Shown here: positions 15,379 through 50,403 of the stretch, piece by piece
Position numbering within the stretch: the stretch's first letter is position 1
Layout of the letters: each line of letters begins with the position of its first letter
DNA from: Alcaligenaceae bacterium
GTDB lineage: Bacteria; Pseudomonadota; Gammaproteobacteria; Burkholderiales; Burkholderiaceae_B
Direction of reading: 5' to 3'
NCBI GenBank assembly: GCA_013205565.1
Contig: JABMMM010000174.1
Span: 2,290 to 66,289 of the forward strand
DNA: 64,000 bases
Made by a program: the position numbers and the translations under genes
Notes under the pieces: generated by a model
Seen by the model: only the letters and a program-made list of their open reading frames with translations
Databases searched by the model: none
Told to the model about the DNA's origin: nothing

Positions 15379-16203
15379 TTAGTCGATCAGTTTGCCGCCG
15401 TCATGAAAGGGGTAAGGCCCTTCGAAGGTGCCGCAGGGCATTTGGTGGCTGACGACGCCACGCTCGGGGTCCCAAGCGTAGACCTTGACGCCACCGGGCT
15501 CGAGTATCCATTGCGAGGCGGCTTCAGGGTCGAGATCTAAGGCAACTTGATGAGCGGGCGCTGGTGAGGTTGACGCGATTGTTGCGCCAAACCGTACGTC
15601 GATCGCGCGGTGCAAATGACCGCAAATGACGCGTTCGATGTTTGAATACTTTGCGACGAGCGTTTCAAGTTCTACCGCACCCTGCAAGAGACCAATCTTA
15701 TCCATATGGCCAATTAGGGTCTTGAACGGTGGATGATGCATCGCAATCACGACTGGCATATCTTTTGAGTCGTTCAGTGTGTCTTCGAGCCAAGCCAAAC
15801 GTTTCGCGCAGAGGGCTCCGTGACTTTGTTGGGTAACAGTGGTGTCTAGTGTAATCAGTCGCACCGGACCGAGTTGCACGGTGTACTGCACAAAGCCCGA
15901 CTCGCCTAAGTATGTGTGCTCAGGAAAAGCCGCACGCATCTGTGTCGCGTCGTCATGGTTACCTGGCAGCAAGTAATACGGCACGGTTAGAGGTGCAAGG
16001 CACTCACGCAAATGCGCGTATTCTGCAGGTCGTCCAAAATCGGTTAGATCACCAGTCAACACTACCGCTTGAGGTTTTTGGCGCAAGTGTTCAATGGTCT
16101 GTACCGCACGATGCAAATAGGGTGCAGTATCGAGACGTCCATACGCCAAGCGGCCAGGTTCGCGAATATGCAGATCGGTCAACTGAATAAAGAGTGTGCT
16201 CAT
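15379..16203 (-). CDS. GpdQ/Icc-like metallophosphoesterase (phosphodiesterase)
   Basis: TDLH, TGDLTD, PGNHD, MHHPP, CGHLH; start moved to ATG at 16203. Confidence 0.88.
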   Translation of the reverse strand: MSTLFIQLTDLHIREPGRLAYGRLDTAPYLHRAVQTIEHLRQKPQAVVLTGDLTDFGRPAEYAHLRECLAPLTVPYYLLPGNHDDATQMRAAFPEHTYLGESGFVQYTVQLGPVRLITLDTTVTQQSHGALCAKRLAWLEDTLNDSKDMPVVIAMHHPPFKTLIGHMDKIGLLQGAVELETLVAKYSNIERVICGHLHRAIDVRFGATIASTSPAPAHQVALDLDPEAASQWILEPGGVKVYAWDPERGVVSHQMPCGTFEGPYPFHDGGKLID

Positions 16204-17252
16204 TAGTCGCTCTCGCAAGGCATGAAATGTTGGGTGGAAATAGTGAAAGAGACGCGCTCGCCGACAAGGTACGGACTATCGCGATGCGCTTCGGCAGCTA
16301 GCGTCGCCTGTCCTATCACCTCTAAGCGGTAATGAATGCGGTCCCCTAAAAAACTCCGTTGGGTAATGAGCCCTATGGGTTGATTCAAGGCTAACGGTTG
16401 CAATTGAATATCCTCTGGGCGTACAAATAGTTCAGGCCAAGGCCCATGAGGGCACGGCATGGCTGCCTGAGCAACGGTGACAGTGTCCTTGACGATATCT
16501 TCGGGCGTACGCTGCAGGCGATTAATGCGCCCCAGAAACTCAGCCACAAACATGTGTTTAGGATTTCGATAGAGCTCCTCGCCCAGCCCCACTTGAATGA
16601 TTTTTCCACTTCGCATCACCGCTAGGCGATCAGCAATTGCCAACGCCTCTTGCTGGTCATGCGTGACATGAATCGTTGTCACACCAAGACGGCGCAGCAA
16701 GTCTGCTAACTCATCGCGTAGCGTCACTTTTAGCTTGGCGTCTAACGCAGTGAGTGGCTCATCGAGCAATAAAACTTTTGGACGTACCGCCACGGCACGT
16801 GCGAGCGCAACGCGTTGGCGCTGGCCACCAGACAGTTCTGCGGGTCGCTTATGCTCTAGCCCCTTGAGTTGCACTAAGTCAATCAATTCACCCACAGTCT
16901 GCTTGAGCTGCTGTGCGCTAGTGCCCCTGAGCCGCAACCCATACCCAATATTGGCCTGAACGGTCATTTGTGGAAAAAGTGCGTAATGCTGAAACACCAT
17001 CCCGATCTGGCGTCGCTCAACGGGCACATGCGTCACCTCTTGCACACCAAACCGTATCACGCCCCCTTGATCAACCCGTTCAAGGCCAGCGACGAGTCTT
17101 AACAGCGTCGTTTTACCGCAACCAGAAGGCCCGAGCAATGCCAAGACCTCGCCAGGATACACGTCAAGCGAGGACGGCAATAAGCCCTGTGTGCCGTCAG
17201 GATAAGTCTTGGCGCACTGACTAATTTGTACTGCAGTGCGTTCAAGTTCCAT
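16203..17252 (-). CDS. ABC ATPase (PotA/AfuC/PhnT class)
   Basis: GPSGCGKTT, LSGGQRQ, LLDEP, VTHDQ. Confidence 0.9.
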   Translation of the reverse strand: MELERTAVQISQCAKTYPDGTQGLLPSSLDVYPGEVLALLGPSGCGKTTLLRLVAGLERVDQGGVIRFGVQEVTHVPVERRQIGMVFQHYALFPQMTVQANIGYGLRLRGTSAQQLKQTVGELIDLVQLKGLEHKRPAELSGGQRQRVALARAVAVRPKVLLLDEPLTALDAKLKVTLRDELADLLRRLGVTTIHVTHDQQEALAIADRLAVMRSGKIIQVGLGEELYRNPKHMFVAEFLGRINRLQRTPEDIVKDTVTVAQAAMPCPHGPWPELFVRPEDIQLQPLALNQPIGLITQRSFLGDRIHYRLEVIGQATLAAEAHRDSPYLVGERVSFTISTQHFMPCESD

Positions 17253-18048
17253 AGCGCTTTTGAACCTCGTTGGCGATCACTTGTAAGCCCCACAAGAGAG
17301 GCAGCACAACAATAAAAAAAATGAGGGTGTAGGCGGAGCCCACCTCGATACGCATCGACGCATAGCTGTCGGCCAAGCCAACCGGCAAGGTACGCGTTAA
17401 GGGTGTGTGCAACATCCACGTCAAGTTGAACTCGCCCACGGACAAGGTAAAAACCATTAAAGCACTGGCGATGATGGCTGGCATCACTGCGGGGATCAAC
17501 ACGCCTAACAAGCGACGCGAAAATCCAGCGCCCAACGTACGCGCCGCCTCTTCAATCGCAACAAGTTCTCGATTTGCGAAAGCTGACGATACCGTGCGCA
17601 CCACAAATGGCAAAGTGAACACGACGTGGCCGACTAGAATAAATAAAAAGCTTTGCCGAAAACTACGAAACTGACCGTACACCAGAATCAGAGCCAAGCC
17701 CGTCGCCAAGCCAGGTACCGCCACGGGCAAAATCAAGAGCTCTTCAAACAAACGCGCCCAGCGCGAGCGGGTTCTGGCCAAGGCGTACGCGCAAGGAACA
17801 CCAACGATGGTGGTAATCAACGCACACGAACTCGCGATCGCCAACGACCACAGTACCGTGTCGCCATAGCCTTCCCACACTTGTTCAAGCCAGCGAGTCG
17901 TCAGCCCACTGGCCAAACCTTGTGAATAATTGTTCACCAAACCAGCCGTGATGGATAAAACCATTGGAGTGAGCATAAACAGCGTCACAAGAGCCGTTAG
18001 CAGCGCTAAGGTCACAGGAAATCGATGAGGCGAGCGCGTCTGTGCCAT
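17242..18048 (-). CDS. ABC permease
   Basis: EEAARTLGA (EAA motif); hydrophobic. Confidence 0.88.
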   Translation of the reverse strand: MAQTRSPHRFPVTLALLTALVTLFMLTPMVLSITAGLVNNYSQGLASGLTTRWLEQVWEGYGDTVLWSLAIASSCALITTIVGVPCAYALARTRSRWARLFEELLILPVAVPGLATGLALILVYGQFRSFRQSFLFILVGHVVFTLPFVVRTVSSAFANRELVAIEEAARTLGAGFSRRLLGVLIPAVMPAIIASALMVFTLSVGEFNLTWMLHTPLTRTLPVGLADSYASMRIEVGSAYTLIFFIVVLPLLWGLQVIANEVQKRYGT

Positions 18049-18051
18049 CCC

Positions 18052-18861
18052 TTACCCTAACACCGTCGCAGGATCTGAATAACGCCTTGCCACATACATC
18101 ACCACCCACGTTACCAAGCCTAGCGCGATCGAAAGCGACGCAGCTAACGCAAAGTTAGCGTAATTTGTAAACTCAGAATAGATCGTGATCGGCAATACTT
18201 CAAATTTGGTCGCCAGTGTAAAGGCCGTGCCAAAGGCACCCATCGAGGTTGCAAAAACAATTGCGGCGCAAGCCAGCGTTGTTGGTGCTAATTCTGGCAG
18301 CCAAACATCACGCACGATTGCATAACGTGTGGCGCCTAAGGTTCTGGCAGCCTCTTCAAGAGCCAGATCCATTTTCTCAGCGGCCGCCGTATAGGTGGCG
18401 ATTGCACGCGGTAACGAAAAATACAAATACGCTAGAAAGAGGCCCAAGAAGCCATAAGCAAGTGTCAGGCGACCTGCCCCCAAGGCTTCAGACAGGTCAG
18501 CGATCAACCCCTGACGCCCGCCCAACAGAATCATAAAAAAACCAATAATCACTCCGGGAAAAGACAAGGGCAGGGTTAAAAGTGAAAGTAATATGCCGCG
18601 CCCCGCAAACTTGTGACGCGCTAAAAAAATTCCAACTGCACTACCAAGAACAAGTGTCAAGACAGTGACTAGCAGCGACAGCCAAACGGTGTTCAACAGA
18701 CTCAACCAATAGCGAGGGTGAGTAAAAATAGCAAAGTAAGTTTCCCAGCCTTTTTGAGCAGGCAAAGCTACGAGCCACGCCATGGGCAATAACCAACACG
18801 CAAAAAAAATCACAACGACTGGCATCAAACACGCCAGCCGTTGTGCAGAGAGAGTTACCAC
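18052..18861 (-). CDS. ABC permease
   Basis: LEEAARTLGA (EAA motif). Confidence 0.88.
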   Translation of the reverse strand: MVTLSAQRLACLMPVVVIFFACWLLPMAWLVALPAQKGWETYFAIFTHPRYWLSLLNTVWLSLLVTVLTLVLGSAVGIFLARHKFAGRGILLSLLTLPLSFPGVIIGFFMILLGGRQGLIADLSEALGAGRLTLAYGFLGLFLAYLYFSLPRAIATYTAAAEKMDLALEEAARTLGATRYAIVRDVWLPELAPTTLACAAIVFATSMGAFGTAFTLATKFEVLPITIYSEFTNYANFALAASLSIALGLVTWVVMYVARRYSDPATVLG

Positions 18862-18892
18862 CTCGTACTTACGGTATCAGCGGCAAGCGAAC

Positions 18893-19903
18893 TTATTGCA
18901 CGTCTTTCAAATACCGTTCTGAAAACATCTTTTGCACTTTAGCCATTTGACCGTAATCGACGGTCTTGGCACGTGCATAGTCTGCTGCGGGCAAGAAACG
19001 GGCTTGTACCTCTGCAGGGACAGCCGAGGCTCTCACAGGGCGCAGATAAGCGTTTGCCCACAGTGCTTGCCCCTCGTCAGACAGCACAAAATCAAGAACT
19101 TTTTTACCATTCTCGGCATTTGGGCCTTTGTTCACGAGGCTCATCACGTACGGCACCACCAAGGTGCCCTCAGCGGGAATCACAAAGGCTACGTTCGCCT
19201 TGTCTTTATACTTTGCGCGATAGGCATTGAAATCGTAATCCAACAAGATCGCAATTTCGCCCGACAACACACGCGCGTAAGACGTTTGCTTAGGCACGAT
19301 TGGCTCGTTCTTTTTCAGTGCTTTGAAATACTCAATCGCTGGACCAAAGTTATCAAGCGAACCGCCCCGCGCTTGATTGATCGCCACTGCCCCCACATAG
19401 CCAACAAACGCCGAGGCTGGGTCTAAATAGCCAATCAAGCCTTTGTATTCAGGCTTAAGTAAGTCAGCCCATGACTTAGGAATAGCCTTGCCTTTTAGGG
19501 CGTCAACATTGACCATCAATCCTAAGGTGCCCGAATGAATCGTAAACCAATTACCCGCGGGGTCTTTCAATGCATCTGGAATGTCATTCCAGGCCGCAGG
19601 CTTAAAGGGTGTGACGACCCCGTCCGCCGCCGCCTGAATACCAAAGGTGACCCCCAGATATGTGACGTCTGCAACTGGGCTAGCCTTTTCAGCGACAAGT
19701 TGCGCCAGAGACTGACCAGAGTTTTTATTATCAGGGGGGACGGTGATTCCCGTTTTAGCCTTGATAGCCTTGAGTTGTGATCCCCAGTCTGCCCACTCAG
19801 GTGGGCAGTTGTAACAGATCGCAGACTGTGCCATCGCAACACTTGAAGACAACGCAATACCTAACAGACCCACACGCAATATCTTATTTATTAGAGCTTT
19901 CAT
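18893..19903 (-). CDS. Periplasmic binding protein (AfuA/PhnS/thiamine-like class), ligand unknown
   Basis: Signal peptide MKALINKILRVGLLGIALSSSVAMA; PKSWADLLKPEYKG, IPAEGT; start moved to 19903. Confidence 0.85.
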   Translation of the reverse strand: MKALINKILRVGLLGIALSSSVAMAQSAICYNCPPEWADWGSQLKAIKAKTGITVPPDNKNSGQSLAQLVAEKASPVADVTYLGVTFGIQAAADGVVTPFKPAAWNDIPDALKDPAGNWFTIHSGTLGLMVNVDALKGKAIPKSWADLLKPEYKGLIGYLDPASAFVGYVGAVAINQARGGSLDNFGPAIEYFKALKKNEPIVPKQTSYARVLSGEIAILLDYDFNAYRAKYKDKANVAFVIPAEGTLVVPYVMSLVNKGPNAENGKKVLDFVLSDEGQALWANAYLRPVRASAVPAEVQARFLPAADYARAKTVDYGQMAKVQKMFSERYLKDVQ

Positions 19904-19969
19904 GGTCAGTACCCTCAGTAATGTCGAACACAAAACAATGCTGCAATGCCGCCAGCGAAATGAATCTTC

Positions 19970-20003
19970 AGTTTGCCTCAGAACCGTGACAAGCATATGA
20001 ATC
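19970..20003 (-). promoter_or_regulatory. Pho-box promoter of the ABC-phosphodiesterase operon
   Basis: GATTCAT-ATGC-TTGTCAC (20003-19986), 10 nt, CAAACT (19975-19970). Confidence 0.65.
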
Positions 20004-20069: not shown

Positions 20070-20103
20070 TTGTCATCAAAATCGAATATTCACAAAGTAC
20101 TCT
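20070..20103 (+). promoter_or_regulatory. Pho-box promoter of the 86-aa ORF
   Basis: TTGTCAT-CAAA-ATCGAAT (20070-20087), 10 nt, TACTCT (20098-20103). Confidence 0.55.
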
Positions 20104-20169: not shown

Positions 20170-20430
20170 ATGAATGTAAAGAAACGTTGGGTGGCTTACT
20201 GCTCGGGCAATACCCGCGATGCGACTGAAGACGATTGGAACAATTTTGTCTTAAAGACCTATTTGAACTGGCGCAAGCAGGCGCTCGACCTTGATACGAA
20301 CACAGCCACAGAAGCAGGAAAAACGCTGACTGAATATGCACAGGCTCACTACAGTTTTACGAAGTTCACTGAGGGCGCAGAGATTTATCAAGAGCTTGTA
20401 GACCTTGAAGAGAAACGTCATCACGCATGA
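20170..20430 (+). CDS. Hypothetical 86-aa soluble protein
   Basis: Fills the intergenic space with no overlap of real genes; natural composition; GGGG purine tract before ATG; candidate promoter upstream. Confidence 0.65.
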   Translation: MNVKKRWVAYCSGNTRDATEDDWNNFVLKTYLNWRKQALDLDTNTATEAGKTLTEYAQAHYSFTKFTEGAEIYQELVDLEEKRHHA

Positions 20431-20465: not shown

Positions 20466-20499
20466 TTGTCATGACCCTGTCACATGAAAGGATGAATAT
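20466..20499 (+). promoter_or_regulatory. Pho-box promoter of the GT28 gene
   Basis: TTGTCAT-GACC-CTGTCAC (20466-20483, near consensus), 10 nt, GAATAT. Confidence 0.75.
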
Positions 20500-20507
20500 A
20501 CCTTTCA

Positions 20508-21659
20508 ATGGATAAAACTATTGACTTCATTTACTTCAATGCGGGCGGCGGTCATCGCGCGACGGCGCTGGCGCTGCAGCAGGCCATTGAATTTGAGCGG
20601 CGCCCCTGGAACGTGCGCTTGGTGAATCTGTTTGAAGTGTTAGACCCGAAGGCGAGCTTTAACAAAGTGATGCGCTGCGCGCCAGAAGACCTGTACAACT
20701 TTAGATTGCGCCATGGCCTCACACTCGGGCTCTCGACAGAGCTCAAACTGTTTCAGGCGATGATTAAAATGGGGCATAACGCCATGGTTCGCAAGCTTGA
20801 GCAGCACTGGCTGGATACTAAGCCCGATCATGTCGTTTCATTAGTACCAAATTTCAACAAAGCGTTATACGAAAGCGTGACAAACGCCTTGCCGATGGCA
20901 CCCTTTGTCACGGTCTTAACCGACATGGCGGATTATCCGCCGCATTTTTGGATCGAACCCAATCAGGCACAGCACCTCGTTTGTGGCACCGCGCACGCCG
21001 CAGAACAAGCGCGCGCTGCGGGTTATCGAGATGAGCAGATTTCGCTGACGTCGGGGATGATCTTACGGCCTGCCTTCTACGATCAGCCTGAGCTTGATCG
21101 TGAGACAGAGTGTCTCGAGCTCGGACTAGACCCCGACAAGCCAACAGGGATTGTGATGTTTGGTGGCCATGGCTCGAGCGATATGCTTCGCATCGCGAAG
21201 GCGTTACCTGACATTCAACTCATTTTTATTTGCGGCATGAATGCGACGCTGAGCAAAAAAATCTCTTTACTCAAACCAAGCTGCAGACATGTCGTGATCG
21301 GCTTCACACAGAAAATCAATCACTACATGCGCTTAGGCGATTTTTTTATTGGTAAGCCCGGGCCGAGCAGCTTAAGTGAGGCCGTCCATATGGGCTTACC
21401 CGTTATCACGTTTGGCAACGCCTGGACGATGCCCCAAGAGCGTTACAACACCAACTGGGTGCGCGAGCAAGGCGTAGGCCTTGTGATCCCCTCTTTGCGC
21501 GCCATTCGAAAGGGCGTGTTAGCGCTCTTGGAGAACCTTCCCGCATATAAAGACACCGTCTCAACCATCGAAAATCGAGCGGTGTTTGAAGTGACCGATA
21601 TTCTTGCGCAATTGATGTCGGCCGCAGATACAGAACGAGCAACAGTCGAATTGCCCTAA
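20508..21659 (+). CDS. GT28 diacylglycerol glycosyltransferase (MGDG synthase/UgtP-like)
   Basis: NAGGGH, TVLTD, GKPGPSSLSEA, PQERYN motifs. Confidence 0.85.
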   Translation: MDKTIDFIYFNAGGGHRATALALQQAIEFERRPWNVRLVNLFEVLDPKASFNKVMRCAPEDLYNFRLRHGLTLGLSTELKLFQAMIKMGHNAMVRKLEQHWLDTKPDHVVSLVPNFNKALYESVTNALPMAPFVTVLTDMADYPPHFWIEPNQAQHLVCGTAHAAEQARAAGYRDEQISLTSGMILRPAFYDQPELDRETECLELGLDPDKPTGIVMFGGHGSSDMLRIAKALPDIQLIFICGMNATLSKKISLLKPSCRHVVIGFTQKINHYMRLGDFFIGKPGPSSLSEAVHMGLPVITFGNAWTMPQERYNTNWVREQGVGLVIPSLRAIRKGVLALLENLPAYKDTVSTIENRAVFEVTDILAQLMSAADTERATVELP

Positions 21660-22471
21660 GCTGGTACGATCAGATCCTCTTGTTCGTCGAGCGTCTCGCT
21701 GGTTCGATACGGCCAGTGTACAACTTTCAAAACGCCCTCTGACGTCTCAACAATCGCAGAAAGGCTCTCGACCCAGTCACCATCGTTACAGTACAAAATA
21801 CCATCGATATCGCGAATCTCGGCTTTATGGATATGACCACACAAAACACCATCGTAGCCGCGACGCCTTGCCTCGTCAGTGACAATATTCTCGAATTGAG
21901 TAATAAACGAGACTGCGTTTTTAACCTTGTGCTTGAGGTACTGTGACAATGACCAATACGACAAACCCATTTTGTGCCGAAAGTGATTGAACCAGTTGTT
22001 CAGCTTGAGTATTAGCGTGTACATACTGTCGCCTAAATAGGCAAGCCACTTTGCATGCTGGATGATTCCATCAAACAAATCGCCGTGAGTGACCCAAATC
22101 CGTCGACCGTCTAAAAGTTGGTGAGTCGTTTCGTCAACAATCTTTATGTCACCAAACGCCATTCCCAAGAACTGCCTGATGACCTCGTCGTGATTGCCGG
22201 CAATATAGGTCACGTGCGTACCCTTGCGCGCTTTGCGAAGGATCTTCTGAATCACATCGTTATGACTTTGGCGCCAGTACCAACCCTTCTTGAGTTGCCA
22301 ACCATCGATAATGTCGCCCACCAGATACAAATGATCAGAGTCATTCCATTTTAAAAAATCTAATAGGTATTCGGCTTTGCAACCCGGCGTACCAAGGTGA
22401 ATGTCCGAAATCCATATCGCCCGATGACGCTGTGGCCGTTGCTCTGGAACATCATATTCAGCTGGTTTCAT
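21656..22471 (-). CDS. plcP: PlcP-type intracellular phospholipase C (LpxH-like metallophosphoesterase)
   Basis: ISDIHLG, VGDIIDGW, HNDVIQKILRKARKG, GNHD, HGD, CGHIH, NDGDWVES, matching recalled PlcP/SMc00171-type sequences; Pho boxes upstream. Confidence 0.8.
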   Translation of the reverse strand: MKPAEYDVPEQRPQRHRAIWISDIHLGTPGCKAEYLLDFLKWNDSDHLYLVGDIIDGWQLKKGWYWRQSHNDVIQKILRKARKGTHVTYIAGNHDEVIRQFLGMAFGDIKIVDETTHQLLDGRRIWVTHGDLFDGIIQHAKWLAYLGDSMYTLILKLNNWFNHFRHKMGLSYWSLSQYLKHKVKNAVSFITQFENIVTDEARRRGYDGVLCGHIHKAEIRDIDGILYCNDGDWVESLSAIVETSEGVLKVVHWPYRTSETLDEQEDLIVPA

Positions 22472-22479
22472 GGATAGTT

Positions 22480-22535
22480 ATGATGCTCTAGTGGTTTGAC
22501 AATTTGATGGCTGCCGAGTGACAAGACTGTGACAA
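22480..22535 (-). promoter_or_regulatory. Four-repeat Pho box array upstream of plcP
   Basis: TTGTCAC-AGTC-TTGTCAC-TCGG-CAGCCAT-CAAA-TTGTCAA (22535-22496, 11-bp period), 10 nt, CATCAT. Confidence 0.8.
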
Positions 22536-22566: not shown

Positions 22567-23322
22567 TCACGCGCCGCCCAGCAGCGGCCATTGCTCAAGC
22601 AGCACAAAATCGGCACCACGCGTAGGTTCAACAAAAATTGCCAAGGACTCGACTACGCAGGGCGGCAATTGCTCAAAATGTTGATGCGCGGCTTCAGTCA
22701 AGGCACTTAGCTCGTGCGGCGAGGCTGTTGCCAGCGAACCCGTCAGTGAGCAATGAAATCGAAAGCGATCAAGAACATAGGGGTAGCCCCAACGTACCAA
22801 CAGTGAGTCTTCGTGCGAGGACAAGCCCGCACTTCTGCGTCTGCGCAGCTCGTCTGGCCCAAGAGGCGCGGCATAGTCGTTTAGCTCTTTCACACATTGC
22901 TCTTCGAGCAGCGTCAACTGCACCGCGTCACGCTCTGGCACCAGAGCTAGAAAATGATCTAAGAGCTTGACCTGCAGACGTGGCAAGACAAAGGGCTTTA
23001 AGTTTTGACACAAGCGACTGACGCAGTCACTCAGATCCCTCGGCTGATACTGGCTGGCCAACACAAAAGGAGCCCTCAAGGTGGCATGAAAACCATAGCG
23101 TCTTGGGTGTTCTGTTAGCTCCGCGAACCTCTGTGCAGAAACCCCAGACACCGAAGGCTGAGGGTTCAATTGCTGACTGAGCGCGCACCGCCCCAACCAG
23201 AGACTACCTTGCGCCCACCACTGCTGTTCGACATTGGGTGCAAAGTAAACAGCGTAACGGTGAGCCCGTTGCGCCGTGTACCTTGACGCCTCTAGCGCCG
23301 CCCTCAAATCACTGATTGTCAT
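22567..23322 (-). CDS. DUF1045 phn-associated protein (2H-phosphoesterase-like)
   Basis: RYAVYFAP, PRRYGFHATL, YPYV...RFHCSLTG; divergent from phnG. Confidence 0.85.
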   Translation of the reverse strand: MTISDLRAALEASRYTAQRAHRYAVYFAPNVEQQWWAQGSLWLGRCALSQQLNPQPSVSGVSAQRFAELTEHPRRYGFHATLRAPFVLASQYQPRDLSDCVSRLCQNLKPFVLPRLQVKLLDHFLALVPERDAVQLTLLEEQCVKELNDYAAPLGPDELRRRRSAGLSSHEDSLLVRWGYPYVLDRFRFHCSLTGSLATASPHELSALTEAAHQHFEQLPPCVVESLAIFVEPTRGADFVLLEQWPLLGGA

Positions 23323-23371: not shown

Positions 23372-23434
23372 TGGCTATTACCTCGTATAAACAGCTCTCG
23401 CGATGCGACTCTGTGCTAAGAAAGTAACAAGTGA

Positions 23435-41890: not shown

Positions 41891-42814
41891 ATGATGAACA
41901 TCAGTAAAGCCGTACGTAATGTCTTTGCCAATGAAGACCTCAATTTTTTGGTGACTAACCGAATTCCTAGGCTTGCTGTCACGCATTTCATGGGTTGGTT
42001 CAGCAAAATCAAGGTGGGCTGGGTACGAGACGCCTCGATCGGCACCTGGAAACTATTTACTGATCTTGATTTAAGCGAAGCTAAAAAACAACGTTTTGAA
42101 AGTCTTCACGATTGCTTTGTTCGGGAACTGCGTGAAGGTGCTCGGGTCATCGATCACCACCCAGAGGTGATGACGAGTCCTTGTGACGCCATCGTAGGCG
42201 CCTGTGGCAAGATCATTAATGGGCAAGTGTTTCAGGCGAAGGGGTTTCCTTATACCCTCACTGACCTCTTTGGCGCTCAAACCGACACTAGTGCTTGGGC
42301 CAACGGCCAGTACATCACCTTACGTTTAACCTCTGCGATGTACCACCGCTTTCATGCCCCTTATACCGGTGCGATGACAGCCGTACATTATCTTGCAGGC
42401 GATACCTGGAACGTAAACCCGATTGCCTTAAAGCGTGTCGAGAAACTATTTTGTAAAAATGAACGCGCAGTACTTTCGCTCGAACTAGGCGCACAAAAGC
42501 ACAAGGTGGCGCTGGTTCCCGTCGCTGCGATCTTGGTGGCCAGCATCCGCTTACACGGCTTGAATACGCTATTTCATACACGCTACAGAGGACAGACTGA
42601 TTTTGCTTGCAACGTAGCCTTTGAAAAAGGGCAAGAGCTTGGCTGGTTTGAGCACGGCTCGACCATTATTGTGTTCGCCCCAGAAGGGTTTTCCTTAGCT
42701 GACCAAATCTTGCCCGGTGCGCAGATCAAAATGGGGAGCCCGCTGATGCAGTTGCCACCCGAGCAGCAGGCGATGAGAACGACAAACCACGCTGCCCAAG
42801 CGAGCGCGCCGTGA
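41891..42814 (+). CDS. psd: Phosphatidylserine decarboxylase-family proenzyme
   Basis: DCFVRELR, SPCDA, YHRFHAP, NER, HGST self-cleavage site. Confidence 0.85.
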   Translation: MMNISKAVRNVFANEDLNFLVTNRIPRLAVTHFMGWFSKIKVGWVRDASIGTWKLFTDLDLSEAKKQRFESLHDCFVRELREGARVIDHHPEVMTSPCDAIVGACGKIINGQVFQAKGFPYTLTDLFGAQTDTSAWANGQYITLRLTSAMYHRFHAPYTGAMTAVHYLAGDTWNVNPIALKRVEKLFCKNERAVLSLELGAQKHKVALVPVAAILVASIRLHGLNTLFHTRYRGQTDFACNVAFEKGQELGWFEHGSTIIVFAPEGFSLADQILPGAQIKMGSPLMQLPPEQQAMRTTNHAAQASAP

Positions 42815-44112
42815 GTCGTGGCTTCTATGTCGTCATCCTCGCGCAAACCTTTTCCTCGCTAGCGGATAACGCACTGTTCATTGCTGCGATCGCACTGATT
42901 CATCAATTAGAAGGACCGGTGTGGGTACCCCCTCTGATCAAATGGGGCGTTGCCGCCAGCTATGTATTGCTGGCACCATTCGTTGGCGCAATCGCCGACG
43001 CTTATCCGAAAGGCAAGGTGATGTTCACCACAAATGCCTTCAAAGTCATAGGATGCATCTTGATGTTTAGCTACGGCTTTTTTGGCTTGACGGCATCTGA
43101 GCAAATCATCTTAATCTGCGCGGCCTATGCAGTTGTCGGTACAGGTGCCGCCGCGTATTCGCCCGCCAAGTACGGCATCATCACTGAAATGTTGCCCCCC
43201 GAGAAACTGGTCGTCGGCAACAGCTGGATCGAAGGCATGACGGTCGTTTCTATCATTATGGGATCCGTTGTGGGCGGTTTGCTGGTATCGCCCGCAGTAT
43301 CAGGTTGGTTACTGTCACACGACACTCTCAAGAAAATGGCCAATACACCTGCTGAAGTTGCGATCTTGATGATTGGTCTGTTGTACATCGCCGCCGCGCT
43401 GACCAATTTATTGATTCCAAAAACAAACGCCCAGTACCCGAAGCAGCATCAGCACCCCATTCGCCTCATCAGAGCCTTTGCTGTTTACACCAAGGTGCTG
43501 TGGACCGATAAGCTAGGTCAGATTTCACTAGGGGTCACAACCCTCTTTTGGGGGGCGGGCGCAACACTGCAACTGATTGTGATCGAATGGGGTCGCAGTC
43601 AACTAGGCTATCGCTTAGATCAAGCCTCAATCTTGATGGGCATCGCCGCCTTAGGTACCGTGCTGGGTTCGATTGCAGCGGCTCGCGTGCCGCTCAAGCA
43701 ATCGCTTCGTGTCCTGCCGGTTGGGGCACTCATGGGGTTAGTCGTGCTCGTCATGCCGCTCATTTACAACGAGTGGGCCGTGTATGGGCTGTTGCTGGTC
43801 ATAGGGATTTTGTCTGGCTTTTTTGTCGTGCCCATGAACGCTCTGCTGCAGCATCGTGGCCATCTTTTGCTGTCAGCGGGCCATTCAATTGCTGTGCAAA
43901 ACTTCAATGAACAACTCAATATTTTATTGATGGTCTCGCTTTACAGCTTAATGTTGTGGCTAGGGATTTCAATCAACACCATCATCGTGATGTTTGGACT
44001 CTCGGTTGCGATCTTAATGCTTGTGTTGATCCGGTGGCATCAGACAAACCTTCGTAAGGATCCGAACCTACTCTCGCGTATTGGTGAACACGGCCAGGGT
44101 CAGGCGCTTTAG
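42811..44112 (+). CDS. lplT: Lysophospholipid transporter LplT (MFS), copy 1
   Basis: SSLADNALF, YSPAKYG, VPMNALLQHRG, SIAVQNFNE. Confidence 0.88.
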   Translation: MSRGFYVVILAQTFSSLADNALFIAAIALIHQLEGPVWVPPLIKWGVAASYVLLAPFVGAIADAYPKGKVMFTTNAFKVIGCILMFSYGFFGLTASEQIILICAAYAVVGTGAAAYSPAKYGIITEMLPPEKLVVGNSWIEGMTVVSIIMGSVVGGLLVSPAVSGWLLSHDTLKKMANTPAEVAILMIGLLYIAAALTNLLIPKTNAQYPKQHQHPIRLIRAFAVYTKVLWTDKLGQISLGVTTLFWGAGATLQLIVIEWGRSQLGYRLDQASILMGIAALGTVLGSIAAARVPLKQSLRVLPVGALMGLVVLVMPLIYNEWAVYGLLLVIGILSGFFVVPMNALLQHRGHLLLSAGHSIAVQNFNEQLNILLMVSLYSLMLWLGISINTIIVMFGLSVAILMLVLIRWHQTNLRKDPNLLSRIGEHGQGQAL

Positions 44113-44172: not shown

Positions 44173-45039
44173 CTAATCAAACCGGTAGGTTACACCCACC
44201 TGCACACGGCTGACATACTCGCCAGAACCGCCCCAAGCCGTTCCAATTGAACTGGCGTTGCGCTGGTAAGACAACCCAAAGCTCAGATCCTTGGTGGGCG
44301 AATACATCAAGGCGACAAGCCCATAGCGCGTCATTGATGGATCAGACTCACTCGGATTGGTGGTGATCCCGCCATCAAGCGCGATTTTCCATTCGGGTGA
44401 GATGTTCCAGACCGGTGCGAGCGAAACCGAATAAAGGTTGGTGCGATTTGCATCTTCGCTGAAGCCGACGGTGTACGCCTTGTTATACGGTGCGCGCAAA
44501 TAGCCTGCGTTGAAATGCAACTCGTAGTTCTCACTAAATTGCGAAGCAACTAAGGTTAACCCGTAGTTCCAGGCTGCGTTACCGATGCCATATACTTGTT
44601 GCGAAGTACTTGAGGGCGCAATCAATTGAGGCCGCAGCGTCAGGTTCAAACCCGTCTCACCGTCGCCCATAAAGCGCCACTTCAAGTTCAAGGTGTAATT
44701 TCCAACGCGCGAAAAAGAGCCCAGTGGCTGCAAATAATAGGTAGACGTGAACTGCAGGTCAATGTTGTCAGTCAAGCCGCCTGAAAACGCGAACGGAAAC
44801 GCTTTCGCGTTACCAGAACCCTCATAGTCTTGCCCTGAGCTCACACTGCCCGAGTCAGTCGAATTCTGCCCAACCTGCAACACCCTGTAAAAATATTGCT
44901 CGACCTGGTAGCCACCCTTGGCTGTGGTGCCAGCATCCTCGGTATTTAAGGGCATGTAGGCGTAAGCGGGAAGACACGCCAGAAACAGAGTCAGAGCAAA
45001 ATATCTATCGCTGGCCAAACCACTTTTTTTTGTAAGCAT
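44173..45039 (-). CDS. Putative outer-membrane beta-barrel ('transporter' family)
   Basis: Signal peptide, PLNTEDAGT start motif, alternating aromatic strands, C-terminal VGVTYRFD. Confidence 0.65.
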   Translation of the reverse strand: MLTKKSGLASDRYFALTLFLACLPAYAYMPLNTEDAGTTAKGGYQVEQYFYRVLQVGQNSTDSGSVSSGQDYEGSGNAKAFPFAFSGGLTDNIDLQFTSTYYLQPLGSFSRVGNYTLNLKWRFMGDGETGLNLTLRPQLIAPSSTSQQVYGIGNAAWNYGLTLVASQFSENYELHFNAGYLRAPYNKAYTVGFSEDANRTNLYSVSLAPVWNISPEWKIALDGGITTNPSESDPSMTRYGLVALMYSPTKDLSFGLSYQRNASSIGTAWGGSGEYVSRVQVGVTYRFD

Positions 45040-45143
45040 TTATTTTTATTAAATAAAATTTTTTGATGTACTTTATTAACAGGATTGATGTACTAGTTCG
45101 ATAGTAGTTGGGTTGCTTCCTTGTGTCAACTACAAAGCAACAC

Positions 45144-45953
45144 TCAGACCGCTTGCGGTATCTGCCCACCAAGCGAAAACTTCAAACTTTGATCCAGAAA
45201 GTCGTGGGTGTGAACGAGTACCGTCTCGCCACTTATCAGTACCACACTATAGGCCGGTGGTTCGTGGCTGCCGGGAATATCGCCTTTGGCCTCAAAATCC
45301 AGCCAAACCTGATGGTTTGTGCCGCGCAGTGTCGAAAACGGTACCCCATGCCAACTACCCGAAATCGGACGATGCACGTGACCAAAAAATAGATGGCGCA
45401 CTGAACCTAGATACGGGCGAAGCACCTGCAAAAACTCATCGCGTTGCACCAGTCCAATTCGATCCATCGGCTCTAGTGCCACCTCAAACGGCGGATGATG
45501 CATAAAAATATATTTTGGCGTGTCAGGCGAACGTGCAAGTTGTTCACGTAACCAATGCAAGCGGTTCGCACAATACCAGCCCGAATGTGTGCCCGGTTGA
45601 TTGGTATCTAAAAACAAAAACTGTCCAACGGCGGTCTCTTGCACACCTTGCACAAAACCGTTTTCGTCTTCTAAGGCATCGCTAAACACACCACGAAACA
45701 ATTCGCGGTTGTCATGATTACCCAAAATCAGCGTGTATGCAGGCTTAAGCTCAGCAAGGCTCGCATGCAGGGCGTGATACGCACCCAGTTGTCCCCAGTG
45801 GGTCAGGTCGCCAGTGATCACCACTTGATCTGCATCGGCGTGCAGGCTATTGATACTTGCCACAGCAAGGTTCAACCGCTCAAGGGGATTCAACCCATAC
45901 AAGATTTGGCCAGGTTCGACTAAATGGGTATCTGTTAAGTGTATGAGTTTCAT
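45144..45953 (-). CDS. GpdQ-like metallophosphoesterase (glycerophosphodiesterase)
   Basis: TDTH, TGDLTH, LGNHD, MHHPP, FGHVH. Confidence 0.88.
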   Translation of the reverse strand: MKLIHLTDTHLVEPGQILYGLNPLERLNLAVASINSLHADADQVVITGDLTHWGQLGAYHALHASLAELKPAYTLILGNHDNRELFRGVFSDALEDENGFVQGVQETAVGQFLFLDTNQPGTHSGWYCANRLHWLREQLARSPDTPKYIFMHHPPFEVALEPMDRIGLVQRDEFLQVLRPYLGSVRHLFFGHVHRPISGSWHGVPFSTLRGTNHQVWLDFEAKGDIPGSHEPPAYSVVLISGETVLVHTHDFLDQSLKFSLGGQIPQAV

Positions 45954-46008
45954 CTTGATCCTTGAGCGGGTGAGTCGGTTTACTGCCTGAACAACTCAGG
46001 CGTTTAGT

Positions 46009-47274
46009 CTATTGACGCGGTAAAAGTTTCTGGACTGAAGCGGTCATGTCATCCAACACCTTCTGCGGCTCTTTCGCACGGGTTCCCGAAACGATTGATT
46101 GCAAATGATCGTTAATGACATCCGTAATTTTCAAGCCGTTTTCACCCGGAAACGCATACCAGCCTGTCAGGTAAGGTAATTGCTTGACTGCCGTAAAGTG
46201 GTTAGGATTTTGCACATAAAAATCCTTCAGATATACGTCATTCGCAATCTTATTGGGTGGAATGTAACCAGTCGTTTTTGCCATAATTGCCGCACCCTCT
46301 GGGCCTGTTGCAAACTTTACGAACGCCCACGACGCGCTCTGTTTTTCAGGCGTCTTCGCGACGATCACAACAAGGTTGCCGCCAGCCGGAAGATTGCCGT
46401 TTGGCAAGACACTGGGATAGACCTGGGTCTTGAGTTCAAACTTGCTACCGATCATTTGCGTGATCTTGGTCAGGTCTGAGGTTGAGGTGAAGTGAATACC
46501 CGTCTTGCCCGCCACAAAGGCGCTTCGTGCATCAGGTTGCGCCAAGTTAGGCATACCGCCTTCATTGACTAAACTCGCGATCATATTGATCGCAAATTTT
46601 CCGGCATCGCTATTAAACGCAACCTTTGACTCGTCAGCATTAAGCATGGTGCCACCCTGACTAAACACTGGCGCCTGCCAAAGCCAGTTGCCTGTGATAT
46701 CCCAAGAATAGGTCACGCCATGATGGCCACCCTCTAACGCTTTAATTTTTTTGGCTAAAACCAGCACTTCTGGCCAAGTTGTTGGCAAATTCGCGGCGTC
46801 ACCACCAGCTTTTTTAACGAGGTCGAGATTGTAATACGAAATTGGCAACGAAATCGCAAACGGCAAACCGTAGACTTTACCTTGCGACGTGCCAATATCA
46901 AACATGGCTTTATGAAAACCTTGCTCGTTGAAATTCTTTTCAGCCGCGATAAATGCATCAAGTGGGACGGCGATTTTGCGATCGACTAGCACCCGCAAGC
47001 GATTTAAGCCTTGAAAGGTGACGTCAGGCAGTTGGTTGGTGACCGCCTCACGTAGAATTTTTTGTGTGCCTTCTTCGTAGCTTGCATAAGGCGCGCGGTA
47101 AACCAAAGTGATATCAGGGCGCACTTTAGAGAAAGCTTCTTTCAGCTGCTTGTGTGTTTCTTCAAATAACTCAGGGTAAGGATATTGAACAACAACCTCA
47201 GTGGCGGCAAAAGACAAAAGAGGCACGGCCAACAATGCAGTTTTGGCTGTCAGCGATAGCATTTTTAAAATCAT
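46009..47274 (-). CDS. UgpB-like periplasmic binding protein
   Basis: Signal peptide, LPFAIS.P..YYNLD, TTGYIP; start moved to 47274 (RBS GGAG). Confidence 0.82.
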   Translation of the reverse strand: MILKMLSLTAKTALLAVPLLSFAATEVVVQYPYPELFEETHKQLKEAFSKVRPDITLVYRAPYASYEEGTQKILREAVTNQLPDVTFQGLNRLRVLVDRKIAVPLDAFIAAEKNFNEQGFHKAMFDIGTSQGKVYGLPFAISLPISYYNLDLVKKAGGDAANLPTTWPEVLVLAKKIKALEGGHHGVTYSWDITGNWLWQAPVFSQGGTMLNADESKVAFNSDAGKFAINMIASLVNEGGMPNLAQPDARSAFVAGKTGIHFTSTSDLTKITQMIGSKFELKTQVYPSVLPNGNLPAGGNLVVIVAKTPEKQSASWAFVKFATGPEGAAIMAKTTGYIPPNKIANDVYLKDFYVQNPNHFTAVKQLPYLTGWYAFPGENGLKITDVINDHLQSIVSGTRAKEPQKVLDDMTASVQKLLPRQ

Positions 47275-47339
47275 AAAAACTCCAAAGAAAACGACTAAAA
47301 AAAAGAAGGTCCAACCGACTGCGACCCTGCACAAAAAAC

Positions 47340-48155
47340 TTACTTCATACCCGTCATGGTGATACCTTGCACAAACCGGCGTTGCAGAAAGACAAATGCC
47401 ACAAGCAAAGGAGTAATAATCACGGTTGCAGCAGCCATCAACGCACCAAAATCAGTGCCAGCATCATCGTTCCGAAAATGCACAACACCGAGCGGTGGCG
47501 TAAAAAGCGCCTGCTCATTCACGGCAATCAAAGGCCAAAAATAATCATTCCAGTGGGCGACCAACGAAAAAATTCCAAACGCTGTCAAGGCTGGATACGC
47601 CACCGGCAACATCACCCGCCATACAATGCCAAGCTCTGAGATGCCATCCATGCGAGCCGCATCCACCAAGTCGTCAGGCACAGTCATAAAAAACTGTCGC
47701 ATCAGAAAAATGCCAAACACAGAGATCGTCCAAGGCAAAATTAACGATGCATAACTATTCAACAAGCCCAACTGATGTAGCAGCAAAAACACTGGAATCG
47801 CAACAGCGTGTGGTGGGATTAACAAACAGGCGAGCACCAAGCCAAAGACAAACTCTCGACCCTTCCAGCGCAGCTTGGACAAAGCGTAGGCCGCAGGCAG
47901 GTTCACAACCACTTGCAACAAAAAAATCGCAAGTGTGACAATCACGCCGTTGAGCAGATACTGGGCAAGCGGTGCCTTGGTAAAGGCCCTCGTATAGTTC
48001 TCGAGCCAAAACATTCGATCGGGCAGCCAGCGGATATGATCCACATAGATCTCTTCAGGCGGTTTGAGCGAGGTCAGCACCATCCAGACAAACGGAAATA
48101 AAACGACCGCGGCCAACAACAGCAGCACCACATGACGCAAGGCTCGACTAAGCAT
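47340..48155 (-). CDS. CUT1 permease (UgpE-like)
   Basis: PFVWMVLTSLK, DAARMDG; start moved to 48155. Confidence 0.88.
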   Translation of the reverse strand: MLSRALRHVVLLLLAAVVLFPFVWMVLTSLKPPEEIYVDHIRWLPDRMFWLENYTRAFTKAPLAQYLLNGVIVTLAIFLLQVVVNLPAAYALSKLRWKGREFVFGLVLACLLIPPHAVAIPVFLLLHQLGLLNSYASLILPWTISVFGIFLMRQFFMTVPDDLVDAARMDGISELGIVWRVMLPVAYPALTAFGIFSLVAHWNDYFWPLIAVNEQALFTPPLGVVHFRNDDAGTDFGALMAAATVIITPLLVAFVFLQRRFVQGITMTGMK

Positions 48156-49065
48156 AGTGAACCTTCTTTTCAAGGTAACGGGTTTTAATCAGCGTCAGCG
48201 CTAAGACAATTGCCAAGAACACAATCGTCACTGCAGAGGCATAACCCGACTTAAAAAATTCAAACCCTTCGGCATACATGGTGTAAAGCAGCACCTCGGT
48301 TGACTTGCTCGGCCCCCCTTTTGTCAGGATCGCAACCGTGTCAAAGACCTGAAAAGAGCGGATCGCCGTGATCACCACCACGAAGAGCGTGACTGGCCCT
48401 AGTAACGGCCAGGTGACGAGACGAAAACGCTCAAGCGCAGTTGAGGCGCCGTCCATCGCCGCTGCATCATAGAGATGTCGCGGAATCGAGACCAGCCCAG
48501 CCAAAAACAAGACCATATTGAAACCAAACTGATTCCAGATCCCAATCGCCGCGAGCACCCACAAAGCAAGCCCTTCAGTGCGCAACCAATTATGGCCAGG
48601 CAAACCAAACTCTTTTAACAACAGATTTAAAAAGCCGAAGGTAGGGTGCAAAATGAATTGCCACGAGATCGCCATGGCAATCAGTGTTGCCATGACTGGC
48701 AAGAAAAAGATTGTGCGGTAAAAATCCTTAAAGCTTTTTTGCGCTTCAATCAGCAGTGCGACCCCTAACCCAAGCAACACAGAGGTCGGCACCACCACCA
48801 CGCTATAAAGCGCGGTATTGCGCAACGAGCGCCAAAAATTTTTATCTTGATAGAGCTCGATAAAATTTTCAACGCCGATCCAGTTGAATGATTTTGCACC
48901 TAATTGATAGTCAGTAAACGACAAGCCCAACACTGCAAGCAGTGGGCCCAACAAAAACATTGCCATCAACAACAAGGCTGGGCCCAGTAAATAGAAGGGC
49001 GCCCAATTCATTTTGCCTCTTTGCTTAGACGCAAGCGGCTTGAACGTCTTCCTGTTCACGTTCAC
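48148..49065 (-). CDS. CUT1 permease (UgpA-like)
   Basis: LYDAAAMDGA, TKGGP. Confidence 0.88.
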   Translation of the reverse strand: MNVNRKTFKPLASKQRGKMNWAPFYLLGPALLLMAMFLLGPLLAVLGLSFTDYQLGAKSFNWIGVENFIELYQDKNFWRSLRNTALYSVVVVPTSVLLGLGVALLIEAQKSFKDFYRTIFFLPVMATLIAMAISWQFILHPTFGFLNLLLKEFGLPGHNWLRTEGLALWVLAAIGIWNQFGFNMVLFLAGLVSIPRHLYDAAAMDGASTALERFRLVTWPLLGPVTLFVVVITAIRSFQVFDTVAILTKGGPSKSTEVLLYTMYAEGFEFFKSGYASAVTIVFLAIVLALTLIKTRYLEKKVHYA

Positions 49066-49067
49066 CT

Positions 49068-50264
49068 TTACGCCGTTTCGAGCGCTGGCGCTTCAGTCGC
49101 CACCGCGGCATCTTGCCAAGCTGGCTTCACCGTCAAGCGCGGCCCCTGCTCAGAGAACACCAGTGGCAGCATCAACAAAGAGACGCCGACGAAAGCACCG
49201 AGCTGGGCTCGAGGTGCCTGCGCCGCAAGACGCACGATGATTGGATCCTTTGCTTGTTTAGTTCGCACATGCACAAGCGTTTCAGAGCCTAAGTTCTCAA
49301 GATGCGAGACCACACCTTGCAGAGCAGCTTGCTCGACCGAAACCAGTGAACACTGCTCGCTTCTAAAGGCAATCACAACCCCTAGCCCATGCGGTGCATC
49401 CACATTCAGATCCAAATAACTTTGGGCCAAGGTCTCGTGTTCAGTCTCTGAGATTTCGAGCTTACCGTCGCGCACCCAGCCCTCAAGCATGTTGATCCGA
49501 GGGCTACCCACAAACTCAGCCACACGTAAATCACTAGGATTGCGATAAATTTCGTCAGGTGTGTCGTACTGAAGAATTGAGCCTTCGATCATCACTGCGA
49601 TACGATCTGACATCGTCAGTGCTTCGGCCTGATCGTGCGTGACATACAAAAACGTCGCACCAAGCGTGCGATGCAGCTGCGAGAGTTCGCTACGCATGTG
49701 CACGCGTAATTTCGCGTCAAGATTGGATAAGGGTTCATCCATCAAAAATGCCTCAGGCTTGCGCACCATGGCGCGCCCGAGCGCAACGCGTTGACGCTGA
49801 CCACCTGACAACTGGGCAGGCTTGCGGGGCAATAACGCTTGAATGCCAAGCGTGGCCGCAACTTCATGGATATCTTCGCGAATCTCTCGCTCAATCTTTT
49901 GCTGCAGGCGACTAAACAGACGCACACCGGGCAAACGCTGCCAAGCATTCAAACGGCGCATCCGCAGAGGGACAGCGATGTTGTCGTAGACGCTCAAATG
50001 CGGATAGAGCGCGTAAGACTGAAACACCATCGCAAGATCACGATCTTTCGGGTGCAGACGCGTCACGTCGTGCTGGCCCACCACGATCGAGCCGCGCTCT
50101 GCGACATCAAGCCCTGCGATCAAACGCAACAGTGTTGACTTGCCACAGCCCGAGGGGCCTAGCAAGGAGACAAACTCGCCATCTTTGATGGTCAGCGATA
50201 TGTCTTGTAAGACAGAAGTCGAGCCAAAAGACTTTGAGATTTTTTGAATGACAATTGCGGACAT
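49068..50264 (-). CDS. CUT1 ATPase (UgpC/MalK-like)
   Basis: GPSGCGKS, VFQSYALYPH, LSGGQRQ, MDEPLSNLDAKLR. Confidence 0.92.
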   Translation of the reverse strand: MSAIVIQKISKSFGSTSVLQDISLTIKDGEFVSLLGPSGCGKSTLLRLIAGLDVAERGSIVVGQHDVTRLHPKDRDLAMVFQSYALYPHLSVYDNIAVPLRMRRLNAWQRLPGVRLFSRLQQKIEREIREDIHEVAATLGIQALLPRKPAQLSGGQRQRVALGRAMVRKPEAFLMDEPLSNLDAKLRVHMRSELSQLHRTLGATFLYVTHDQAEALTMSDRIAVMIEGSILQYDTPDEIYRNPSDLRVAEFVGSPRINMLEGWVRDGKLEISETEHETLAQSYLDLNVDAPHGLGVVIAFRSEQCSLVSVEQAALQGVVSHLENLGSETLVHVRTKQAKDPIIVRLAAQAPRAQLGAFVGVSLLMLPLVFSEQGPRLTVKPAWQDAAVATEAPALETA

Positions 50265-50293
50265 GGCTCACACCTAAAATTCAAAGTGTGCAA

Positions 50294-50327
50294 ACCATAG
50301 CAAGCGCATATGACCAACGCGTTGCAA
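50294..50327 (-). promoter_or_regulatory. Pho-box promoter of the ugp-like operon
   Basis: TTGCAAC-GCGT-TGGTCAT (50327-50310), 10 nt, TATGGT. Confidence 0.65.
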
Positions 50328-50403
50328 TGCAGCATATCTTTTGCGCGCAGCGCCGTCACAACGATGTCATCAAGCCCGTTTCACGCAAAGCATGTCTGAG
50401 TGA

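Follow-up and report, generated by a model that had tools for sequence, protein, structure and literature searches.

A dense cluster of phosphorus-scavenging and phospholipid-replacement genes under predicted Pho-type promoters in a freshwater Burkholderiales lineage

The stretch of DNA analysed here, a window of 64 kb, comes from a freshwater Burkholderiales lineage of metagenome-assembled genomes (MAGs) from Swiss, Swedish and Canadian lakes, deposited as Alcaligenaceae or Burkholderiaceae; the genome to which it belongs comprises 3.4 Mb in 337 contigs. Within the window, a 35-kb block holds about 35 genes in about 13 transcription units, and this block is very probably a cluster of phosphorus (P)-scavenging and phospholipid-replacement genes under predicted Pho-type promoters, that is, promoters of the kind that PhoB activates. 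Genes were assigned by NCBIfam and Pfam scans of the window's proteins, with equivalog cut-offs taken as standard. We considered 24 congeners and compared the locus in nine of them (G-numbers denote genomes of relatives, C-numbers contigs of the present genome). The block contains the following genes.

15379-19906 (−): AepS-like substrate-binding protein (SBP), two permeases, PhnT2-like ATPase and a GpdQ/SpdA-like metallophosphodiesterase (NCBIfam PhnT2 346, PhnS/PRK15046 107-120 and SpdA 159 bits, all sub-cut-off)
20170-20430 (+): conserved open reading frame (ORF) of 86 amino acids (aa), with tblastn orthologues 64-70% identical in G013, G024 and G014 and coding-type substitutions
20508-21659 (+): GT28/MGDG-synthase-like glycosyltransferase, candidate glycolipid synthase (Pfam Glyco_tran_28_C and MGDG_synth; NCBIfam diglucosyl-diacylglycerol synthase 81 bits, sub-cut-off)
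21656-22471 (−): PlcP-like metallophosphoesterase of the LpxH family, candidate phospholipase C (Pfam Metallophos, weak LpxH match)
22567-23322 (−): DUF1045/TIGR03223 phosphonate-operon protein (NCBIfam 238.7 bits, cut-off 248.95; Pfam DUF1045)
23435-29306 (+): phnGHIJKLM, carbon–phosphorus (C–P) lyase core operon (NCBIfam equivalogs above cut-offs for G, H, K, L and M; Pfam PhnI and PhnJ)
29638-37972 (+): one operon encoding a PhnZ-type HD oxygenase (TIGR03276 227.6, cut-off 214.6), an Opp/Dpp-type ATP-binding cassette (ABC) transporter (SBP, two ATPases, two permeases), PehA phosphonate-monoester hydrolase (NF045661 927.5, cut-off 900) and a HAD phosphatase
38007-39260 (−): GT4, Agt-like candidate glycolipid synthase (Pfam Glycos_transf_1 and Glyco_transf_4; NCBIfam lipid glycosyltransferases 119-151 bits, sub-cut-off)
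39468-40076 (+): membrane protein of 202 aa, weakly Mpo1-like (Pfam PF06127 21.3 bits, cut-off 24)
40182-41846 (−): class-III aminotransferase with an N-terminal membrane segment (Pfam Aminotran_3; NCBIfam match to a GSA-aminomutase-like model 168 bits, sub-cut-off)
41891-44112 (+): Psd-like decarboxylase and LplT lysophospholipid transporter (TIGR00163 152, cut-off 112; NF008397 537, cut-off 297)
44173-45039 (−): outer-membrane-type protein (OMP) of 288 aa, with its own promoter upstream
45144-50264 (−): UgpC-, UgpA-, UgpE- and UgpB-like ABC importer and a second GpdQ/SpdA-like diesterase (NCBIfam UgpC 377, cut-off 432; UgpB 81 and SpdA 252 bits)

The first-pass annotation of this DNA had assigned nearly every gene here to P scavenging or P-sparing lipids, and the family scans agree. 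About 27 genes fall to P scavenging: the 2-aminoethylphosphonate (AEP)-like ABC transporter, the two GpdQ/SpdA-like diesterases, PhnGHIJKLM (all present and intact), the DUF1045 protein, the PhnZ-type oxygenase, the Opp-type ABC transporter, PehA, the HAD phosphatase and the Ugp-like ABC importer. Three are assigned to lipid remodelling (the PlcP-like esterase, GT28 and GT4, the first encoded convergently with the second), and a further four make up a putative lipid module (Mpo1-like, aminotransferase, Psd and LplT). For both GpdQ/SpdA-like diesterases, the PlcP-like esterase, GT28 and GT4 the family match stays below equivalog level, so the substrates are putative, and the 86-aa ORF gave no Pfam match.

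Upstream of these genes lie eight promoters that share one layout, in which 7-nt repeats separated by 4 nt (the Pho box) are followed by an xAxxxT hexamer. All eight hexamers that had been reported are present where they were placed, each exactly 10 nt 3′ of the second repeat of its box (minus-strand hexamers having been numbered by their 5′, highest base).

Site 1, box 19986-20003, −10 element CAAACT 19970-19975 (−): aepS operon promoter, GATTCAT-ATGC-TTGTCAC, 10 nt
Site 2, box 20070-20087, −10 element TACTCT 20098-20103 (+): promoter of the 86-aa ORF, TTGTCAT-CAAA-ATCGAAT, 10 nt
Site 3, box 20466-20483, −10 element GAATAT 20494-20499 (+): GT28 (agt) promoter, TTGTCAT-GACC-CTGTCAC, 10 nt; 14/14 consensus
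Site 4, repeats 22496-22535, −10 element CATCAT 22480-22485 (−): plcP promoter, four 11-bp-phased repeats (TTGTCAC, TTGTCAC, CAGCCAT, TTGTCAA), 10 nt
Site 5, repeats 23316-23355, −10 element TAAACT 23366-23371 (+): phnG promoter, four phased repeats (TTGTCAT, CGTTAAT, TCGTCAT, ACACAAT), 10 nt
Site 6, box 29337-29365, −10 element CATACT 29376-29381 (+): phnZ operon promoter, TATTCAC-ATAA-CTGTAAG-CCGT-TTGTCAT, 10 nt
Site 7, box 39314-39331, −10 element TACAGT 39298-39303 (−): GT4 promoter, CTGTCAT-CGAA-CGGTTAC, 10 nt
Site 8, box 50310-50327, −10 element TATGGT 50294-50299 (−): ugpC promoter, TTGCAAC-GCGT-TGGTCAT, 10 nt; 11/14, the weakest box

Scored against the consensus YTGTCAY-N4-YTGTCAY, the eight sites match at 11-14 of 14 positions. 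A generic sigma-70 scan found no −35/−10 promoter at any of them, as is expected of activator-dependent promoters. Site 2 is present as described but serves the conserved ORF at 20170-20430, not the GT28 gene. Distal boxes extend three of the upstream regions: those of plcP and phnG hold four phased repeats each, and that of ugpC includes a strong, inverted box, CCGTCAC-AACG-ATGTCAT, at 50353-50370 on the plus strand.

Comparison of the locus among congeners shows all eight promoters kept at orthologous positions with the 10-nt length of the gap unchanged. Averaged over columns, conservation reaches 0.87-0.92 in the repeats and the −10 element but 0.76 in the gap, and in the deep sets the value for the gap drops to 0.58-0.64 (plcP 0.58, GT4 0.64, aminotransferase 0.62). 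The anchor positions of the −10 element, A2 and position 6, are invariant (conservation 1.00), position 6 being T in all sets except that of the aminotransferase, whose upstream array is described below. Twelve distinct orthologous promoters retain the plcP array, its 10-nt gap and its distance of 7-8 nt from −10 element to ATG; the GT4 promoter is kept in nine species of the genus, with gap length and TAnAnT invariant; and the GT28 promoter is kept in G013, G024, G014 and the 58%-identical homologue of G010. The aepS promoter recurs in G013, G024 and G014 at a constant 63 nt from the ATG with a differing gap sequence, and TGTCAT and TACTCT of site 2 are unchanged across four species. The block as a whole is syntenic in the independent MAGs G013, G024 and G014, so it is not an assembly artefact.

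All eight reported promoters are thus real as sequence features, but eight is an undercount: about eleven Pho-type promoters are present, the additional ones being as follows.

23421-23454 (−): Pho-type promoter of the DUF1045 gene, CTGTCAG-ATGG-TTGCAAC, 10 nt, TACTTT; 12.8 bits, moderate
39361-39405, box 39361-39378 (+): promoter of the Mpo1-like gene, TTGTCAT-CAAA-AATTCAT, 21 nt, AATAAT
41867-41900 (−): Pho-type array before the aminotransferase gene, TGTTCAT-CATT-TCGTCAC, 10 nt, TAAAAA; overlaps the psd start codon

The DUF1045 promoter sits within the first codons of phnG, on the opposite strand. Its layout is kept in G013, G024 and G014, and G015 differs in spacer and gap (CTGTCAG-CAGA-TTGCAAC, 10 nt, TATTGT). 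A leaderless promoter for this gene at GACATT was rejected: it is not conserved in relatives, and the conserved box inside phnG is preferred. For the Mpo1-like gene, AATAAT lies inside an invariant extended −10 element, TGAAATAAT, and the box together with CTGAAATAAT is kept in six species. The aminotransferase array occupies the 45-bp gap between the aminotransferase gene and psd, and its box, 10-nt gap and TAAAAA are kept in 5/5 distinct orthologous sequences compared; whether this array acts as a promoter is uncertain. Taken together, the approximately eleven promoters predicted in the block would make up about half of the strong PhoB promoters predicted in the genome.

The region had been called a consolidated island, and the congeners bear out consolidation: in distant ones only a lipid core is kept together, and phnJ and pehA are found on different contigs. 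In G010, G011, G005, G007 and G008, plcP directly adjoins GT4 in a core with the Mpo1-like, aminotransferase and psd genes, and lplT was found in G008 and G010. phnJ and pehA lie on contigs other than that of the core in G005, G007 and G008, as does pehA in G011, which lacks phnJ. G015 combines the lipid core with the phn operon only, the full block occurs only in the window's subclade (G013, G024, G014 and others), and G021, which is 100% complete, has no plcP, aminotransferase gene, phnJ or pehA. The P-gene content of relatives accordingly takes four states (core only, core and phn, full block, none), and wherever a sampled congener has the lipid core, its genes adjoin one another. The block apparently grew by accretion around this older Pho-boxed core of plcP, GT4, Mpo1-like, aminotransferase, psd and lplT genes. 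In the subclade, the C–P lyase operon, the phnZ-opp-pehA-HAD operon, the AEP-like transporter, GT28 and the Ugp-like operon would have joined around and inside it, and phnCDE would have been lost later. In G010, phoR-phoB-phoU-phoX abut the lipid core, a gene order that points to a differently composed Pho cluster with the regulators included. On the joined stretch 27704-48023 of that genome, an OlsB-like acyltransferase gene also lies at the core, followed by phnCDE and genes for a PhnX-like hydrolase, a PhnZ-like protein and a GT28 glycosyltransferase.

Such variability could also be read as the trace of a recently acquired mobile genomic island that moved as one piece: gene content is flexible across the genus, with G021 lacking key genes, the gene at the left flank is itself variable, and P-related flexible islands are known (PMC10734472). 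Against this, the marks of a mobile island are missing. Scans of the window found no tRNA, integrase or transposase, in keeping with the earlier report of neither integrase nor tRNA in the window, and an Rfam scan of the window gave no match; composition is not deviant, with a G+C content of 48-55% that shows no break from the flanks; the flanks consist of housekeeping genes; and no border repeats were seen, although they were not specifically searched for. The intermediate states in congeners, moreover, fit stepwise accretion, and we regard acquisition in one piece as improbable. The left-flank gene (14511-15377) encodes a secreted hydrolase of the metallo-β-lactamase (MBL) fold and converges on the block's first gene. 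It is variably present, missing in G013 despite the whole block there, so the left border of the flexible region may lie farther left. As a left-flank anchor for an empty site in species without the block this gene failed, being itself variably present.

Accretion was apparently followed by loss at site 6. The segment at 29390-29625 (+) contains remnants of phnC residues 2-30 and 70-95, followed by the last 18 residues of phnE (‘LSARIRRALV*’); tblastn searches of the window with PhnC and PhnE of G024 recovered them at E = 4e-9 and 2e-4. In G024 an identical Pho promoter is followed by intact phnCDE and then phnZ, and in G015 phnE likewise lies directly 5′ of phnZ. The 260-nt ‘leader’ of phnZ is evidently the scar of a phnCDE deletion. 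Site 6 is therefore a promoter as reported, but it was apparently the phnC promoter originally, left before phnZ by the deletion. A dedicated phnCDE importer is not found in the phn operon beyond these fragments, and intact, boxed phnC-type loci lie on C80 and C152.

Most of the boxes might still be chance matches picked for a hexamer 10 nt away, with only a few, such as those of plcP, GT28 and GT4, being real. xAxxxT occurs at approximately 5-6% of positions, and a number of observations weigh against Pho control of the block. Over the whole 64-kb window, consensus matches with at most two mismatches number 9 versus 4.5 expected, a count that 6 of 100 shuffles reach and that is therefore not significant, and matches with three mismatches number 54 versus 43 expected. 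Box-only scans of the genome give a noisy gap profile with no clean peak of −10 hexamers at a gap of 10, and the second repeats are poor at sites 2, 5 and 8. The ugpC promoter is kept in seven related MAGs, with a proximal region so nearly invariant that the footprint is uninformative. The box of the Mpo1-like gene lies one helical turn farther upstream, with a gap of 21 nt instead of 10 nt, and the ‘−10’ TAAAAA of the aminotransferase array lacks the consensus T at position 6. No convincing canonical promoter was found for psd-lplT, and the OMP gene (44173-45039, −) has an ordinary promoter, TTGACA-17-TACTAT, at 45101-45129 without a Pho box. The three ABC systems, whose substrates we infer, score below equivalog cut-offs, and in a MAG of 337 contigs location on another contig gives no distance.

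The whole-window counts, however, fall short of significance because coding DNA masks the signal. The intergenic 5% of the block (1,850 bases) contains all eight sites, each of which points at a gene, and seven of the nine best matches fall inside these bases (Poisson probability about 1e-10). The first-pass annotation had proposed a genome scan with a position weight matrix (PWM) of these boxes as a check for enrichment, and enrichment is seen: a matrix trained on only seven promoters beyond the window gives 27 non-training intergenic hits at a threshold of >= 9 bits, of which six lie in the block (binomial probability 1e-8), which accounts for 0.6% of the intergenic DNA as crudely defined. 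This outside-trained matrix independently recovers five promoter regions. A matrix built from all sites scores about ten promoter regions well in the block and a similar number outside it. Of all intergenic matches in the 3.4-Mb genome, only those at the GT28 and plcP promoters reach 14/14. The absence of a clean 10-nt peak reflects the dominance of low-scoring matches in box-only scans, so the geometry rests on the known Pho genes of the genome and on conservation among orthologues. At every site, box, gap length and −10 element are kept in orthologues while neighbouring bases change, and we judge it very improbable that most of the boxes are there by chance.

Elsewhere in the genome, the same arrangement of box, 10 nt and xAxxxT precedes phoB, pstS, phoU, phnC and genes for a PhnS-like SBP, an alkaline-phosphatase-like protein of 780 aa and a gap-like protein. 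The phoB promoter reads CTGTCAT-ATAC-ATGACAC/10/TACTAT, the layout of autoregulation, and the pstS promoter CTGTCAT-AAAG-CCGTCAT/10/TATCAT; phoX and a second phnC, also outside the window, are boxed too. The geometry proposed for the block as that of PhoB promoters is therefore the one found at the genome's own phoB, pstS and phoU, and it equals the published layout in E. coli. Control in trans, proposed from the absence of phoBR and pst from the window, agrees with the location of phoB-phoR on contig C82, pstS on C163 and phoU on C225; the PhoB protein scores 364 bits against TIGR02154 (cut-off 296). Although the genome encodes at least four full-length paralogues (on C13, C334, C324 and C6, scoring 154-190 bits against the PhoB model), and every winged-helix regulator of this family recognizes direct repeats phased at 11 bp, it is highly improbable that another OmpR/PhoB-family regulator binds these repeats and that the block answers a different signal, given the same motif and spacing at phoB, pstS and phoU, the defining PhoB targets, a consensus equal to the E. 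coli Pho box and a P-specific gene content. On C3 (3072-3105, −), a very strong Pho box, CAGTCAT-AAAA-ACGTCAT, stands 10 nt from TACTAT before a glyceraldehyde-3-phosphate-dehydrogenase-like gene, and genes for Bug-family (TctC) binding proteins on C234 and C214 have boxes as well.

PhoB binding, induction at low phosphate and the positions of the transcription start sites are all features that we infer from the sequence, and together they suggest the following model. Under phosphate limitation, PhoR, encoded like PhoB on another contig, would phosphorylate PhoB. Dimers of PhoB~P would occupy the direct repeats, phased at 11 bp, that stand in for a −35 element 10 nt 5′ of a weak −10 element, and would recruit sigma-70 RNA polymerase, such that the approximately eleven promoters fire together. 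The products would take up organophosphorus compounds (phosphonates, phosphonate and phosphate esters and glycerophosphodiesters) and cleave them, and membrane phospholipids would be swapped for P-free glycolipids.

The plcP and GT28 promoters have a further property in common. In the window, each −10 element is followed after exactly 8 nt by the ATG, with no Shine–Dalgarno sequence (22471-22485 and 20494-20510). A spacing of 7-8 nt, the ATG itself and the lack of a Shine–Dalgarno sequence are invariant in 12 distinct plcP and five GT28 promoters, the GT28 spacing always being 8 nt. It is possible, if doubtful, that both mRNAs are leaderless (leaders of 0-2 nt) and arise straight from predicted PhoB-dependent promoters. 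If this design is selected, it would couple the initial steps in replacing phospholipids to Shine–Dalgarno-independent translation in P-starved, ribosome-poor cells. To our knowledge, leaderless translation has not previously been linked to the Pho regulon.

Several other upstream regions carry distinctive sequences. The leader of the aepS-like gene (19907-19960, −), 63 nt long, contains GCATTGTTTTGTGTTCGA, which is invariant in four species amid variable surroundings, has no Rfam match and may be a regulatory element. A hairpin at 41847-41875, in the stretch from the aminotransferase promoter to its ATG, has arms that vary by species and reaches −8 to −12 kcal/mol in four relatives; G007 lacks it, and on the plus strand TTTTTAT comes next, just 5′ of psd. 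We dropped a conserved hairpin for the window, where RNAalifold gave no consensus and the fold is weak (−2.3 kcal/mol, z = −0.06). In the OMP leader (45040-45129, −), two copies of AGTACATCA follow the promoter, and TAGTACAT repeats in G013 too; these repeats may be an operator for some regulator. Between the distal and proximal ugpC boxes (50330-50352), an inverted repeat has arms that co-vary among related MAGs (GCACTGCA...TGCAGTGC versus CAATAC...GTATTG) and could terminate transcription of the bioY operon upstream.

At sequence level, the block maps almost the entire phosphate-starvation response of an uncultured freshwater Burkholderiales lineage, and the intermediate stages in sister genomes make it a usable case for regulon consolidation. 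Guilt by association flags several uncharacterized Pho-boxed genes: those of the 86-aa protein, the Mpo1-like/aminotransferase/Psd/LplT module and the Opp-type importer linked to PehA and PhnZ. The block is thus useful for annotation, and its eleven predicted promoters are ready for reporter assays or electrophoretic mobility shift assays.

In E. coli the Pho box ends 10 bp upstream of the −10 element (PMC1906773). The promoters described here resemble E. coli PhoB promoters in having two or more CTGTCAT-type 7-bp repeats with an 11-bp period, which replace the −35 element and stand 10 bp from a TAnnnT-like −10 element, and in the autoregulatory layout of phoB. They differ in that position 1 of the repeat is looser (C/T/G/A), some second repeats are degenerate, two −10 elements lie only 7-8 nt from the start codon, and one box is a helical turn farther upstream, with an extended −10 element. 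Like E. coli phnCDEFGHIJKLMNOP, the block has a phnGHIJKLM core behind a Pho-box promoter. In contrast to that operon, phnCDE is deleted with a scar and has copies at other places in the genome, the block showed no phnF, phnN, phnO or phnP, the DUF1045 gene diverges from phnG, and genes for a PhnZ-type oxygenase and PehA follow.

Loci combining PlcP and Agt are known from Phaeobacter/SAR11, Pseudomonas aeruginosa (PA3219-PA3218 and PA0842) and Burkholderia cenocepacia (plcP-agt-dagK) (PMC4796936, PMC8528852, PMC13691135), and predicted Pho boxes upstream of plcP/agt have been reported (PMC4796936, PMC8528852). The block shares with them a PlcP-like metallophosphoesterase gene beside that of a lipid glycosyltransferase, with predicted Pho boxes 5′. 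Here, however, plcP is monocistronic and converges on GT28, there is no dagK, GT4 lies 15.5 kb off in this clade, and an uncharacterized Mpo1-like/aminotransferase/Psd/LplT module is attached. P-related flexible islands have reportedly been described for Prochlorococcus and SAR11 as well. In HIMB59, P-acquisition genes are gathered in a single region of the chromosome, and close relatives differ in what it contains (PMC10734472). The block appears to resemble such islands of marine oligotrophs in gathering P-acquisition genes of variable content in one chromosomal region; it differs in belonging to freshwater Burkholderiales, in having pst and phoU outside, and in having lipid-remodelling genes as its conserved core. 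Pho-box promoters, PlcP–glycosyltransferase remodelling and P-related islands are all known, and the block is clearly not a new type of system but an unusually dense freshwater example of these.

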